Made by a program: the position numbers and the translations under genes. From Eledone cirrhosa (lineage: Eukaryota): DNA of 64,000 bases. Of this stretch, positions 718 through 62,400 are shown piece by piece. The notes beneath the pieces are model-generated. The model did no database searches, was not told the DNA's origin, and was given only the letters and a program-made list of their open reading frames with translations. The number at the start of each line of letters is the position of its first letter. Position 1 is the first letter of the stretch. The stretch covers positions 44,764,001-44,828,000 of the forward strand of contig OZ024749.1 in NCBI GenBank assembly GCA_964016885.1, read 5' to 3'.

Positions 718-915
718 AAAAGTTCTATTTAAATTGTTGGGACCTTCCAACAATAATGGTGCATTTTTTAAGGGTATGTCAATATTTATTTATAAAACTG
801 ATCTATATTATATTTTGTCTGATGAAAGCACACCATAATTTAACTTGGTGTCCTTGAAATATGTATAATGAAATAAATATGGTTTTATAAATATAGTTTC
901 CATTTGTTAATATCG
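718..915. mobile_element. Hammerhead-bearing TA-embedded element, family D (PLE-like)
   Basis: Shares sequence with 19215-19462 and 47138-47403; flanked by TA-rich microsatellite; contains the hammerhead at 813-873. Confidence 0.7.
813..873 (+). ncRNA. Minimal type I hammerhead ribozyme motif (family D)
   Basis: ttttgt-CTGATGA-aagcacacca..tggtgtcctt-GAAA-tatgta-TA-atgaaa; stem I pairs with G-U wobbles. Confidence 0.6.
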
Positions 916-945
916 TATATATATATAGATATATTTATCTATCTT

Positions 946-1050
946 TAGGAAAATAGTCAGGTCCCCGACGGCTGAGCTCCGACCGTTTCGACAGATAGAT
1001 GCGAACTCGTGCGTTATGGTCCACCTGGTTTCTAACAAAACTTTCTTTGC
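946..1050 (+). mobile_element. Family A element, internally deleted (one arm plus tail)
   Basis: ccccgacggctgagctcc...gtttcgac is joined to the tail gtgcgttatggtccacctggtttc, then (TA)n. Confidence 0.7.
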
Positions 1051-1194
1051 TATATATATACACATATAAATACACACATGCGCGGACACCCCCCCCCCCC
1101 CCCCCCCACACACGCACATACATACACATACACACACACACGCAAACACACACACACACGCACACACATATATAGTTTATTAAGGAGTCCAGAA

Positions 1195-1322
1195 ATGTGA
1201 TGAAATATCGATCTCATCGCGATTGATCGATACCGATCCTATCTTGAGCTGATCAATCACGAAACGCGCGTCAAACGGGAATATAGACAATGGTGCTATA
1301 CAGATACCTCGTACAAACTCCT
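1195..1322 (+). mobile_element. Degenerate hammerhead 3' half (family L)
   Basis: Stem gattgatc/gatcaatc followed by GAAA-cgcgcg (palindrome)-TC at 1261-1272; no intact CUGANGA box; TA-flanked. Confidence 0.45.
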
Positions 1323-2189
1323 TATATATGTATATATATATACACACATATATATATGTATATATATATATATATATGCATTTATATATATATATATATG
1401 TGTGTGTATATATATATATATGTATATCTATCTATCTATCTATCTATCTATCTATCTATCTATATATCTATCTATATATATATATATATATATATAACTA
1501 TATATGTGGGGATATGAGCGTGATTTTATAGTATGAGATACGAATGGAACTAGAGACGGAGCATCAATTTCTTGAGACAATCATGGTGACAGCGTGATAT
1601 GGCTTTGCAAATATTCTCCTCTGACCACAGACCACATAGACGACGTTGGCTGGGATAGAATCCTGTTAAGAATAAAACAAAAGTAAACGTATCTTCTAAA
1701 AGAAATATAACAGTTTGCTTGTCCATTAACAGGATTAGCTGACTAGAACTTAAAGTAGTATAGCTTCAATTTTCCTAGATGCTTGACTACGTAAACAGCT
1801 GGAGAGACGAGTAAATAGGATTCTCAGAAAGAAGCTGTACTATGCATCAATGCAATACATCCAATTGTATATATATATATATATATATATATATATATAT
1901 ATATATATATATATATATATATATATATATATATATATATATATATATAGAGAGAGAGAGAGAGAGAGAGAGAGACAGAGATTGATAGATATATAGATAG
2001 ATATATTTATGTATGTATATATATATATATTATTATACACAGGGATTCCCTCTCAAATTCGCCATTGTCAATGTCAATTTCCTCATCTTTAATTTGAGAT
2101 ATGTTATGTTACTGAAGGATTGTGAGATTCTTTTTAATATGAAGAAAAACTATTGATATCAACGGTTACTTGTAACTGATTTTTTAAAA

Positions 2190-2375
2190 ATAATTATTTC
2201 TACTTTTGGCACAAGGCCAGCAATTATTCCAGTGTATTACTGGTACTTTATTTTATAGACCCCTTAAGGATGAAAGGCAAAGTTAACCTCGGCGGGATTT
2301 GAACACAGTCCGTAAAGGGGCGTAACTGTGCTGCACAGCATGCCGTGCGACCCTCCACCGATATCGCCAATCCAA
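2190..2375 (-). mobile_element. tRNA-derived SINE (family S1)
   Basis: Reverse complement of the S1 consensus: A-box tggcagtatcggtaga, B-box gagttcaaatccc, core gaggttaactttgcctttcatccttacggggtcgataaaataaagtacc, tail ggccttgtgccaaaagtagaaacaattat. Confidence 0.85.
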
Positions 2376-58194: not shown

Positions 58195-58332
58195 TCAGGG
58201 CTTCCTGATGATTTCTCCCGTATGAAACAGTTCTATTCCTGTAGAAGCCATTTCTATATTAAATATTTATATTTTGCTATGTATTGAGTACTTTACTTAC
58301 TGTGGTTACCCCCGATTGAACCCGGGATAAAA
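58195..58332 (+). mobile_element. Family B element without inverted arm; complete hammerhead at 58199-58249
   Basis: ggcttc-CTGATGA-tttctcccgtat-GAAA-cag..ctg-TA-gaagcc. Stem I differs from the 7697 copy but still pairs. Confidence 0.75.
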
Positions 58333-58378
58333 TTATATATATATATATATATATATATATATATATATATATATATAT

Positions 58379-58586
58379 AACGGAGGAGTTGTGGTAAGGA
58401 ACCAGATGGACTATAACGCACCAGAGTACTCAATACTTAGGGTAGTATAGTGGGTAATAGGAGAAAGTATGACCCCGACGGCAGAGCTCAAGCCGTTTCG
58501 GTGGCTATTTTTGGGACTAAAGACACTTTAGTCCAGAAACAGCCGCCGAAACGGCTTGAGCTCTGCCGTCTGGGTCATACTTTCTT
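58379..58586 (-). mobile_element. Family A fold-back element
   Basis: Tail 58379-58456; arms about 58457-58585. Confidence 0.8.
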
Positions 58587-59314
58587 TTCTCTCTCTCTCT
58601 CTCTCTCTCTCTCTCTCTCTCTCTCTCTCTCTCTCTCTCTCTCTCTATAATATATATATATATATATATATATATATATATATATATATATATATATCAG
58701 GAATGAAAAGTAAAAAGAAGGTGATACATGGGCACCTTCCTGACGTCTTGAGTATTTTAAACTTGACAGAATACTTCTGCTGTAGGATGTCTTCACGGAA
58801 GAGAAAGAGAGAAAGAGTCGAGAGTGATTAAATGAGATAAAGAAGAGATTTATCTATCGATCTTGAAATGTTAAAAACCAATGTTAACAACTATATTTGA
58901 ACACAGAGTGCAGTGGAAACGAACATATAAAAATGCATTTAATCCGATGCCCTAGATACATTTTGCCGCCTTCTGTTCTCAGTATATTTGCCAAAAGTCA
59001 GACTACTACTTCGTACGATGTCTCTATATATTCTATAATTGATTTCAATGTTGATGTTATCTCCCTTGTTTAAACGACAAAATGTATTATTAAAGCTAAT
59101 GACTAGTTCCACCGATTTATTTCGGATATCTGATGCATATATACATATAGATAGGCAAACACACGCATAAACACACCCCGCCGCCACCCACACGCACAAA
59201 TACACACACACACACACACATGCACGCACGCTCACACACAAACACACGCATATATACATGAGTATATATATATATATATATATATATATATATATATATA
59301 TATATATATAAATC

Positions 59315-59450
59315 AGGAAAGAAGATTGACATGGTTTGCTATACAAAAAAGGTTTTTAATCTCATTGCTGACAATTGTTTCTCTGAACTGGTAGGTCTAG
59401 AGATCGCTACCCGCTTGTTTTCACGTTACTCATCATCCACTACCCGGAAT
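59315..59450 (-). mobile_element. Family H element, degenerate
   Basis: Homologous to 44870-44990 (acatggtt..ctgacaattgtttc..tcgcta.ccgcttg). Confidence 0.55.
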
Positions 59451-62400
59451 ACCATAACTGGACTACACCTAAGTGGACTGCATATAACTATTATTTGTTA
59501 CCCCGTATACCCGTATATATATATATATATATATATATATATATATATATATATATATATATATATATATACTTACAACCTTACCTATCTACCTCTCTCT
59601 CGCTCTCTCTCTCTCTCTCTCGCTCTCTCTCTCTCTCTCTCTCTCTCAATCTCTCTCTCTCTCTCTCTCTCTCTCTCTCTCTCTATATATATATATATAT
59701 ATATATATATAGGTAAGAAACAGGGAGCTGTGGGGTTACTTGACAAAGTGTGTGTATATATATATATATAAATATATATATATGTGGGTGCGTGCATATA
59801 TATATTTTTATATATATACAGAAATATGTTTCTCATATTTAGATTAGAGATTTGTTGCACAAGTGTGATACGTTAAATCGACGTCCCTGTAATGTTACTT
59901 GGAGCAGAAGGTGAAGCAACATATATATAAATAGAACCTGAACTAAATATTCAATCTTCATTCATAAAGAATAGAAAACAAAAACAGAAACATGTTATAA
60001 AATGTTATAAAACACATTATAAAATGTATATTAATATTTCTTGCGTATACATATTCAGAATGTGTTGATTTAATATATTACTACGTACACACATACTCAT
60101 GCACACAGACACACACACATACACACACACACACATACACACACATATATATATATATATGTATATATATATATACGTATATATATATATATATATATAT
60201 ATATATGTATATATATATATATATATATATATATATATATATATATATATATATATATATGTATATATATATATATATATATATATATATATATATATAT
60301 ATATATATATATATATATATATATATGATACACCTTCCCTCATCATACAAAGTCACGCTGCTTTATGCAAATTTGTTTTTATCGAAAAATAGCCAACGAA
60401 TATATACACAGACATGATTGAGTGTGCGTGTTTAGTATATATATATATACATATATATATATACATATATATATATATATATATATATATATATATATAT
60501 ATATATATATAATAGTCATATAAATACGTAGAAATGCGTGATTGCTCTTTCCATCTTAAACGATGATATTAAAAATATATTTGAAGATTTCCTCTTGTAG
60601 ATGTTTTTTCTCCTACAGCTCTAAGGTAATATATCTGCATACTTCATGTTGAAGTATAAACACCACTTTATCAGAATTGCCTCCTGGCCGTCGTTCTTCT
60701 CTTTCCATATATGTGTGTAAAAATCTCAGAAAACTTTATAACTCCGATTTATCCTCTAACCTAATTTGTGCAATTTCCCTCCATTTTTTTTTTTTTTTTT
60801 TTAAACATTTTTTCTCTCATTTTCTTTCTATTTTCTCCCTGCCTGTCTTGTAGATTTATTTCGAGATTTTATTTGGAAATATTTTATTCTTATTTTATTT
60901 GTTTTATTTTCTATTCAAATGTTGGTAGCTTCAGGGATTGATAACATTCATGTTCATGCACCGATTCTTTCCACTTAATAAATGATAAATAAAGTTTATT
61001 TTCTCTTTTAATTCTTCGATTTATTTTCTTTTGCGTCATTTTTATCCCATATATATTGTGAAATTTGCCAAACCTGACATTTCATTATTCTACTGTTTTG
61101 ATAGTTTATCGATTCTATTTTTTTTTATAAATATTTTTTAAAGGATTTTCTTATTTATTTGTTTATTAATATCATTTTGTTTATTTGTGTGTGTGTGTGG
61201 ATGTTCGTAAGTTTATTTGTATGTGTGTGTGTGTATGTGTTCATAGTATTGTTTGTGTATGTATGTGTTTGTAGCTGTGTTTGTGTATGTTTGTGTTCAT
61301 AGTATCGTTTATATGTATGTATCTGTTCGTAGTTTTCTTTTTTTATGCATGTATGTGTTCCTAATAATTTTTGTGTGTATGTATGTGTTCGTATTAATGT
61401 TTGTGCTTTTAGGTTTGTTTGTAAGTGTAGGTTTGTTTCTGTGTGTAGTTTAGTATGTATGCAGGTGTGCTTTCTTTTGTGAGAGTGTGTGTATTTTGTT
61501 GTTGTTATTGCGGTGATGGAGTAGGTAAAAGTAAAATAGATGGTGTCGTATCTTGACTGTCAATCTATATATCACTTTGATTATCTGATATTATTTCTAC
61601 TTTGACTGTTTGGTATACACTCCTTACCACGCTACACTATCATCTAATAATTATCTCATCGTCTCATCAATATCATCTATTGTTTTGATGGTGTATTAAA
61701 TCACGAAGTCGTTTGCCACGCAACGATTCTAATAAAATTTCGATACTCATGTATTATGTGTAATCTGCTTATGTTTTACAGAGAAGAAGGTGTCAAATTA
61801 AGCGAGTTTTAGGGTGTTGAATTAAAAATGCTTCAGTATTCGATTGCGCTTCCTGCAGTCTAACTTCAAATTACACCGAGGTCAACTTTGTTTTTCATAA
61901 TTGTAGGTTTATAATTATAGATTATTTAATAAATCTACGTCATTAATACATTCAAAACATACATACGTGGCACGCAGTCTGCTCTCTTTTATCCTATTAT
62001 GATATGAACTAGTTTTAAAGTAAGACAGTTTTTAAAAGTCTTTTTCATATATAAAGTCCCGATGAAAGAATCCGTGAGATTTCATGTTGAAAGCAACTGT
62101 AATAACTAACATTAGCAGTTATCATCTTCGAAAACTATATTTAACAATATATTTCTTAATATCGGACAGAAGGTTGCAGATAATACTGAATAAAATAGCA
62201 ATGCGCATATTTTTAGGCAATAATGTGGTGTTTAAATTTTGGTGAAGTATTTAATGATCTAGTTTCTATATAATGCTTCTATTGAAAACCCTTTTAAATT
62301 TATTAATACTAATATTACAAAATTAGATTGTTCAATAAGTAATCTATTAAAATCTCAGGTGACCAATCTAAGTAATCATACACACTGCTAGACGCACCCC

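Follow-up and report, generated by a model that had tools for sequence, protein, structure and literature searches.

Penelope-like elements (PLEs) of the Hydra clade include Hydra-1_Obim of Octopus bimaculoides, for which a hammerhead ribozyme and a (TA)n target have already been published (Craig et al., 2021, PMC8557442, supplement), and a literature search on hammerheads in octopus and other cephalopods returned only that paper and a twister paper; the main text of a 2026 paper on Octopus vulgaris repeats contains neither "ribozyme" nor "Hydra". For an anole PLE studied in vitro, two reverse transcriptase (RT) start sites are used, both strands are cut at AT-rich DNA, and hammerhead cleavage is dispensable (Frangieh et al., 2024, PMC11167929), and the promoter of Penelope has been located in its pseudo-long terminal repeat (pLTR; PMC2377424). 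Here, we analyze a 64,000-nt stretch of the Eledone cirrhosa genome (assembly GCA_964016885.1, contig OZ024749.1, positions 44,764,001–44,828,000, forward strand; hereafter the window), in which an initial annotation described a swarm of short hammerhead-bearing inserts between (TA)n microsatellite tracts. The reading that we favor, and hold to be probable, is that these inserts are the pLTRs of ten Hydra-type and one Neptune-type PLE families, the shortest of them likely being strong-stop cDNAs copied from the 5' ends of the elements' own transcripts; the short inserts are likely by-products of full-length elements, not independent parasites.

The assembly comprises 3.0 Gb in 1,796 contigs; the window has a GC content of 32%, and 10.6% of its bases lie in (TA)5+ runs, versus 5.6% in arbitrary stretches. 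With a strict type I descriptor (CUGANGA, stem II, GAAA, stem III, UH, and a stem I of at least 4 bp), 10 folds are found in the window, compared with means of 0.05, 0.07, and 0.17 (maximum 2) in sets of 60 Markov sequences of order 1, 3, and 5, respectively, and none in the reversed window, which argues that the hammerheads are genuine. Six of the 11 sites that had been read as full folds pass this test (813, 7697, 9899, 28972, and 46884 on the forward strand and 16684 on the reverse strand), and two more (10058, with the core CUGAAAGA, and 13479) do so once the descriptor admits an 8-nt core or a long stem II, making 8 of 11; the other three are damaged copies, 19358 failing because its first stem I pair is U-U, 58199 because stem II barely pairs (its minimum free energy fold is nonetheless a three-way junction), and 32267 because stem I is broken in the window copy (TCCA/TGGA is kept in the other four copies displayed). 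The four remaining strict matches, all on the reverse strand, are the mirror arms of hairpins at 9770, 28882, and 46869 and a new site at 48833 (family M, below); neither this site nor the hairpin nature of many inserts figures in the initial annotation. Sorted into families by self-BLAST, many inserts prove to be near-perfect head-to-head hairpins with one arm longer. Stem I covaries in family B, as had been proposed (GATTC/GAATC versus GCTTC/GAAGC, A-U to C-G at pair 4), the C-G form occurring in only 2 of 116 rows, namely the window copy at 58199 and L219 (loci fetched from elsewhere in the genome are given by L numbers), and pair 3 of stem I in family M reads U-G, G-U, A-U, or U-A among 31 rows. 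Because minimum free energy folding yields the hammerhead junction at some sites only, with z-scores from +0.8 to -3.0, it gives weak support; an Rfam scan of the window returned no hammerhead family among the best 150 of 622 matches (E up to 10), these 150 being microsatellite-driven, microRNA-type, and under their own cut-offs.

Extension of the families toward an autonomous partner, which the initial annotation had suggested, reaches open reading frames (ORFs) encoding an RT and a GIY-YIG domain for families A–K, bearing out the PLE origin of many unrelated families. In the longer copies, Hydra-type ORFs lie about 0.5–3.7 kb upstream of the terminal repeat, and the element unit reads pLTR (hammerhead and tail), 5' untranslated region (UTR), RT/GIY-YIG ORF, a 3' UTR of 0.5–3.7 kb, and a further pLTR; the 3' UTRs are often rich in TA, TG, and CA, with dinucleotide repeats making up 34–55% in families B, D, G, and I and 9–20% in the others. 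Judged from these sequences, the inserts of families A–J represent the terminal repeat, hammerhead plus tail, of Hydra-type PLEs. Family B was followed at 30 loci, some of which run further upstream through a common 1–3 kb TA/TG/CA-rich stretch to the ORF, and in L106, L113, and L130 the sequence seen at 7695–7830 of the window directly joins a 5' UTR and an ORF of 713–714 aa. The family B parent has an intact 714-aa RT plus GIY-YIG frame, and its C-terminal 404 aa have at least 103 genomic matches of at least 96% identity, many within 758-aa open frames (103 candidates were scored; the 89,302 candidates of a loose first pass should not be read as a copy number). The ORFs of the other Hydra-type families are 30–60% identical to that of B. 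Family A shows the order pLTR-ORF-UTR-pLTR in L252, with about eight more loci linked and the endonuclease (EN) domain about 1 kb upstream in L159, L169, L172, L174, L175, and L181; family C has a Hydra ORF 1.1 kb upstream in L093, L095, L098, and L133–L135; and family E has a pLTR-to-ORF junction in L197 and an ORF upstream in L244, L247, and L258. The same Hydra EN and 3' UTR precede family D at two loci (L240 and L148), a Hydra EN lies 1.1 kb upstream of family F in L302, L304, and L310 (with a pLTR-to-ORF junction in L397), a Hydra ORF lies upstream of family H in seven loci (L340, L345, L349, L355, L356, L358, and L361), and a Hydra EN lies upstream of family J in L173 and L198.

The family B ORF carries the RT motif YRDDG and a C-terminal IVYKC...YIG domain in its single 714-aa frame. 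Pfam GIY-YIG matches the C-terminal 404 aa at E 0.001, under the curated cut-off, which a 41%-identical relative clears; no RT family was matched in the Pfam search of the B ORF, PDB sequence and profile searches gave no meaningful match, and Atlas look-alikes carry GIY-YIG, HTH_animal, and RVT_1. It is by its motifs that the ORF is identified as a putative RT. The Hydra motifs RWR and DKT are found in B, A, and E, and DKT in F and I, the published RWK reading RWR here; a CxCX5C linker precedes the nuclease in B, C, D, E, G, H, J, F, I, and the A-type ORF of L069; and CxxC..E with a terminal CxH is found in B, A, C, E, F, H, I, and J. The G copy is without CxxC, which its close relative L289 has, and the D pieces end before CxH. 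No CCHH nuclease motif was seen in the Hydra-type sequences examined. In an EN tree with eight database relatives, 15 of 18 genome rows group together (support 95/91), with D apart. Family K, placed by motif, is assigned to a Neptune-type PLE: its parent (L265/L395) has a CSQPRCNTC linker, CTEC, HLRDI, and RHF...H, which correspond to the Neptune CX2-5CxxC and CCHH motifs, and an RT with YIDD, found in frameshifted copies only. An origin from Naiads, which have an N-terminal nuclease and are described as being without canonical hammerheads (PMC8557442), was rejected. L068:5888-7374 and L399:886-1786 belong to another family of Neptune-type PLEs, whose DNA is not related to that of K. Further hammerhead families outside the window occur in L143, L145, L146, L148, L405, and L409 (loop III GAAC, GTAC, CCGCCGG, and others), so that the genome holds more families than listed here. 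L063 and L067 contain hairpin insertions with arms of 1–3 kb, and other elements are nested in TA tracts of the B 3' UTR; long LINE ORFs lie near family B copies in L064 and L066, and we take these to be an L1-like ORF1/ORF2 pair and an RTE-like element.

The inserts of the window are as follows, with strand where one is assigned.

7637–7832: family B1 head-to-head hairpin, an inverted short-ended arm and a sense arm, with a full hammerhead core at 7702 and a long tail
58191–58333, forward: family B2 stub, core 58205, weak stem II, compensatory stem I
43867–44062: family B3 hairpin, fold-back within stem II, hammerhead 3' half only
9582–10002: family C perfect hairpin, 150-bp arms, hammerheads at 9905 (forward) and 9770 (reverse), long tail on the left arm, each arm beginning at the main 5' site of the family
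46772–47075: family C older hairpin, hammerheads at 46890 (forward) and 46869 (reverse)
11068–11235: family C tail-only hairpin
718–915, forward: family E stub, hammerhead core 819
19214–19462: family E hairpin, core 19364, U-U in stem I
47135–47407: family E insert and inverted tail piece, decayed core near 47290
28800–29129: family D hairpin, hammerheads at 28978 (forward) and 28882 (reverse)
16639–17051: family F inverted pair, full hammerhead at 16733 (reverse), half copy and long tail on the forward strand
10027–10270, forward: family I stub, 8-nt core CUGAAAGA, long stem II
13278–13645: family J hairpin, core 13484, stem II of about 90 nt
43145–43299, forward: family G stub, hammerhead 3' half and tail
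6452–6575, reverse: family G hammerhead piece, core CAGAAGA (U4A), within the Helitron-like element at 6175–6987
44867–45000, reverse: family H half hammerhead, short end
59311–59509: family H half hammerhead and inverted tail piece
50948–51605, forward: family K, 3' end (650 bp) of a Neptune-type PLE, carrying at 51484 a minimal hammerhead whose stem I has 2 bp
21657–21732, reverse: family K tail fragment
48534–48888, reverse: family M partial retrozyme unit, hammerhead core 48833 (reverse)
2771–2962: family A hairpin, hammerhead 3' half, palindromic loop III, long tail on the left
42941–43129: family A hairpin
28576–28785: family A hairpin, older
58381–58586: family A hairpin
49590–49758: family A hairpin
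946–1049, forward: family A stub
31980–32075: family A tail fragment
44574–44641, forward: family A fragment, short end
46200–46270, reverse: family A tail-only fragment
18925–19035: diverged family A-like hairpin
32080–32479, forward: family P insert; hammerhead core 32271, with a long stem II and, in this copy, a mutated stem I
1217–1329, forward: family N, an old hammerhead family, 3' half only

Folds reported earlier as half or degenerate, at 1261, 43163, and 51478, at 6472 and 44922 on the reverse strand, and in family A, agree with their description. Insert B1 is 97.8% identical to L106, whose pLTR continues into the 714-aa ORF, and is identified from this match as the pLTR of an autonomous Hydra-type PLE; for B2, a similar pLTR in L219 (87%) continues into an ORF 61% identical to that of B1. 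Identities of inserts to loci were taken within the same family only, since parent loci carry inserts of other families.

A TA run follows the long 3' end in 39 of 39 copies of family C, 26 of 26 of I, 20 of 20 of H, 26 of 26 of K, 65 of 68 of A, and 63 of 72 of B, in keeping with the targeting of (TA)n proposed earlier, and most of the displayed B copies that are without a TA run continue directly into the ORF. In all seven families tested, 3' ends next to TA form two classes separated by 65–170 nt. Among 132 head-to-head pairs, 124 join a long to a short end, 8 join two short ends, and none joins two long ends (124:8:0); some hairpin queries contained the long tail, which hides short-short pairs but not long-long ones. 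This arrangement agrees with the two RT starts and the nicking of both strands demonstrated in vitro for the anole PLE (PMC11167929) and with earlier descriptions of a tail at one end (PMC8557442; PMC3846280). Directly after the short end, a hairpin of the form RCTC-N(2-26)-GAGY is present in six of seven families, against a background of 80 in 5,692 windows; the long end, too, has RCTC after it in all four pLTR-ORF junctions, with the complete hairpin in two, which suggests that RCTC...GAGY may be a signal read by the enzyme.

The 5' ends were examined in 264 copies that happened to lie in loci retrieved for another purpose. As many as 189 of these start between -60 and +80 nt from the core, and three reach the start of a 300–500-nt upstream reference. 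Starts cluster in a family-specific manner, with 24 of 39 B copies at -8 to +7, about 60 of 111 A copies at +38 to +52, 9 of 34 C copies at -72 to -65, and 5 of 12 F copies at -124 to -120; of the 36 C copies in which the -69 site is included, 29 have it as their exact start. For B, a TATA-like TATAAATA sits 30–31 nt upstream of the clustered starts and has survived in the diverged B2; for A, TATTTA occupies the position 29–31 nt upstream. An additional G, absent from the parent, stands immediately before the start in 8 of the 11 B copies at -6 and in 10 of the 20 C copies at -69; among the 264 copies, 5' ends do not accumulate at the cleavage site. Because of the two 3' ends, the 124:8:0 pairing, the family-specific 5' clusters, and the TATA-like boxes in two families, the stubs are likely strong-stop cDNAs; that the 5' sites are capped transcript starts and the stubs strong-stop products is a view to which we incline, as somewhat better than even. 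No PLE paper using the term "strong-stop" was among the literature matches listed (the best 10 of 13, with few subscription journals).

In the mechanism that we propose, the enzyme would nick both strands of a (TA)n tract and prime one cDNA on each, one at each of the two internal start sites. The template would be uncleaved RNA, because stubs read through the cleavage site. Transcription would begin inside the pLTR, so that priming in the 5' pLTR could copy only 60–300 nt to the capped end; run-off at the cap would give the family-specific 5' ends, occasionally with an added G, and joining of the two cDNA 3' ends would give the hairpin. A long copy would come about only by priming within the downstream repeat, by a jump between strands, or from a circle made by the ribozyme.

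Several observations weigh against the pLTR and strong-stop reading or blunt its evidence. Families I and G are each linked to an ORF at a single locus (L394 and L375, respectively), and the loci in the hairpin count were chosen as best matches, so that a few duplicates are possible. At the hairpin junctions, which vary from copy to copy, 16 of 44 have an overlap of at least 0 (mean 1.9 versus 0.74 by chance), and 28 of 44 contain unmatched bases. There is no TATA box at -30 for the C, F, and I sites; several of the added Gs may instead belong to the opposite arm, and G is not the commonest base across all stop positions. The C and F sites begin ATAT within a CATATG palindrome, so that they could also be favored by microhomology, either to (TA)n or to the opposite arm. 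An apparent hot spot of family E at -47 turned out to be an artefact of subfamily divergence, and among ORF-bearing B copies, 1 of 10 starts near the B site, in a walk disturbed by indels.

The alternative that survives best, though we consider it unlikely, accepts the same parents and takes the stubs to be ordinary 5'-truncated copies primed at the 3' pLTR, with hot spots produced by RT stalling at the ribozyme fold or by short palindromes through which the two cDNAs pair. Truncation at the 5' end together with an inverted copy is the norm described for PLEs (PMC8557442; PMC3846280), longer copies show a continuum of 5' ends, and the hot spots fall at suggestive places, those of B and A at the stem I margin and within loop II and those of C and F at the palindrome; yet stalling sits poorly with the single-base sharpness in C and the extra G, with the TATA spacing that is kept between B subfamilies, and with the position of the C, F, and I hot spots 35–120 nt upstream of the fold.

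A second alternative, which we regard as improbable, is essentially that of the initial annotation, namely independent non-autonomous mini-elements (PLE-derived SINE-like elements or retrozyme monomers) that are transcribed themselves and copied in trans. Many copies do have a fixed 5' end and length, non-autonomous derivatives of Chlamys exist (PMC8557442), and a stub could be transcribed, since Penelope has an internal promoter (PMC2377424). Most families, however, are ends of ORF-bearing PLEs: short family C copies match the ends of ORF-linked copies without a single difference in 165 bp, both stem II variants of B occur in short and in ORF-linked copies, hairpin junctions differ among copies, and the long ends of short copies run into (TA)n, without the 5' UTR that follows in ORF-linked pLTRs.

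The mini-element idea does fit family M. In L399, eight M cores lie on one strand at a spacing of 420–422 bp (one of 836), and the longest stop-free stretch is 84 codons; our first view of M as another PLE end was dropped on sight of these tandem units. By sequence definition, family M would be classed as a non-LTR retrozyme (a non-coding tandem of about 420 bp with a hammerhead in each unit), unlike families A–K, whose longer copies continue into coding elements, and it may well be mobilized in trans by the same PLE machinery. Family G is an exception of another kind. Its hammerhead piece, with part of the G tail, lies inside a non-autonomous element at 6175–6987 (reverse strand) that has, as read from the sequence, a TC start and a hairpin-CTAG end, which are Helitron-type termini, and a nested SINE fragment; the same context is common to most of the 30 family G loci, and most of the G copies examined have spread as passengers within a Helitron-like DNA element.

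That the hairpins are MITE-like terminal-inverted-repeat DNA transposons or assembly fold-backs, as inverted repeats sitting in TA and one G copy riding in a Helitron-like element might suggest, has next to no chance of being right and was ruled out, since the arms are unequal by a fixed family-specific tail and continue into RT/GIY-YIG ORFs, older copies carry point differences between arms, and the flanks of short hairpins are not mirrored.

Going beyond the strong-stop reading, we put forward tentatively, as possible but doubtful, that this genome carries the densest hammerhead set on record (about 4x10^5, one per 7–8 kb) owing to a predominance of strong-stop cDNAs among Hydra PLE insertions. 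In this scenario, a dimeric enzyme would prime both strands of a TA tract at two sites, each marked by an RCTC...GAGY RNA hairpin, synthesis would run off at the cap, and the products would be sealed as a DNA hairpin; the kilobases of TA/TG/CA repeats in the rare long copies would seed new targets, making these elements a main source of microsatellites and perfect inverted repeats in the host.

The abundance estimate is based on 10-kb stretches, 27 in all, placed at round-number coordinates (together 269.8 kb, leaving out two stretches that adjoin the window), which contain 36 strict folds, both hairpin arms being counted, versus none in the reversed sequences; for 17 of these folds, an inverted partner lies upstream. 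Extrapolated to the genome, this gives about 4.0x10^5 folds (2.4–5.8x10^5 by bootstrap over stretches), and given the fold density in arbitrary stretches the window is fairly typical of the genome; the density of one hammerhead per 4–5 kb reported earlier compares with about one fold per 5–8 kb. The largest count that we encountered in print is 126,247 type I hammerheads in the axolotl, obtained with another descriptor (PMC7229834), about one third of our estimate, which concerns a much smaller genome.

As ribozymes, many of these folds are predicted to be poor. Stems III are 1–3 bp, mostly with palindromic loops (TATATA, TGCGCA, CTAG, CAATTG, and TTGAGCTCAA); a short stem III is the dimer-type design of PLE hammerheads and cleaves weakly in vitro (PMC4209133), and those described here would likewise cleave weakly, as dimers or with help from protein. 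The hammerheads of B, C, D, E, F, and J are canonical, and that of family H has a 3-bp stem I. Family A has a variant core (C3/A8 in 36 of 51 census rows and U3-A8 in 5 of 51), family G has CAGAAGA (U4A) in 47 of 51 rows, and 28 of 38 family I rows of that pattern have the 8-nt CUGAAAGA. The C3/A8 and U4A changes are predicted to impair a hammerhead, and the many window copies that consist of the 3' half only are, to judge from their sequence, incapable of cleavage in cis.

The window contains other repeats as well. A hairpin at 3017–3102 has 36-bp arms between TA runs with CTGAAGA on both arms, no hammerhead fold, and no relative within a 1.76-Mb local sample. An inverted repeat of a complex TA/GACATG microsatellite at 41650–41988 is possibly a hairpin of a repeat-rich PLE 3' UTR, and Penelope copies carrying microsatellites are known in shrimp (PMC7878876). 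Two more TA-flanked repeat families, at 101–207 (reverse strand) and 19055–19201, have coverages of 24 and 30 in the local sample, the former with CTGACGA at 173 (reverse strand) and no GAAA partner in the window copy. SINE-like repeats flanked by TA runs lie at 15137–15422, 49009–49296, and 49321–49525, and a 17-member SINE-like family (2181–2396, 5751–6155, 12124–12809, and 14 more places), often in tandem, is independent of TA tracts and includes one inverted pair (34278–34411). The earlier statement that the window contains no RT holds for PLEs, a tblastn search with the family B ORF having given no match there, but not for LINEs: positions 288–690 (forward strand) hold the 3' (C-terminal) fragment of a LINE RT ORF with a YGSETW... 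motif and one stop, ending in (TAGA)n, with nine overlapping relatives in the local sample and no match in a Pfam search. We presume that this fragment is of RTE/L2 type.

The genome thus offers an unusually large natural read-out of the unsolved PLE mechanism. New here are the family-by-family ORF links, the 124:8:0 rule, the strong-stop reading, and the density estimate; the pairing rule together with the sharp 5' ends provides a testable model for PLE hairpins and short solo pLTRs, and the young family B, with its many intact 714-aa ORFs, would suit an in vitro assay. Active families with altered cores (C3/A8, U4A, and 8-nt) bear on whether PLE hammerheads need to cleave, and for annotation, stubs of this kind are easily misfiled as SINEs, MITEs, or unknown repeats.

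Compared with known systems, the elements are further families of a known clade, plus one retrozyme. Hydra-clade PLEs, Hydra-1_Obim included, have the same single ORF with RT and C-terminal GIY-YIG and share with the present families the motifs RW[K/R], DKT, CxCX5C, CxxC, and CxH, a type I hammerhead near the 3' end, a (TA)n target, an inverted 5'-truncated partner, and a tail (Craig et al., 2021, PMC8557442). Relative to that description, there are ten families here versus one listed for Octopus; the family B unit is about 4–6 kb, with a 3' UTR of 1.7–3.7 kb, versus "generally <3 kb", the greater length being due to 3' UTRs that are up to half dinucleotide repeats; tails are 65–170 nt versus 30–40; most copies are stubs of 100–400 bp, unlike published Hydra elements; and the hammerhead sequence printed for Hydra-1_Obim, compared by eye, matches none of ours. 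The family K parent corresponds to the Neptune clade of the same paper in its YIDD RT, CX4CxxC linker, and nuclease core of two Cys and two His, as well as in its TA target and minimal hammerhead, a likeness drawn by motif from frameshifted copies. Family M resembles non-LTR retrozymes in its tandem units of about 420 bp (Cervera and de la Pena, 2020, PMC7229834; Li et al., 2026, bioRxiv 10.64898/2026.07.22.740005) and differs in also having PLE-type hairpins and two 3' ends.

For the mechanism, a close parallel is PAc, a Poseidon element of Anolis carolinensis, in which two internal RT starts define the tail, as here, both strands are nicked at AT-rich DNA, and insertion proceeds without hammerhead cleavage; the pairing of long with short arms and the short products with fixed 5' ends are features described only here, relative to that account (Frangieh et al., 2024, PMC11167929). 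Penelope elements of Adineta vaga and Drosophila virilis are alike in their head-to-head inverted pLTRs with palindromic junctions, in the optional tail on one arm, and in a promoter within the pLTR (PMC3846280; PMC2377424). Where the palindromes have been read as self-priming on an antisense template and solo pLTRs as products of recombination or deletion (PMC3846280), the data from Eledone favor two primed cDNAs and the direct synthesis of short copies.

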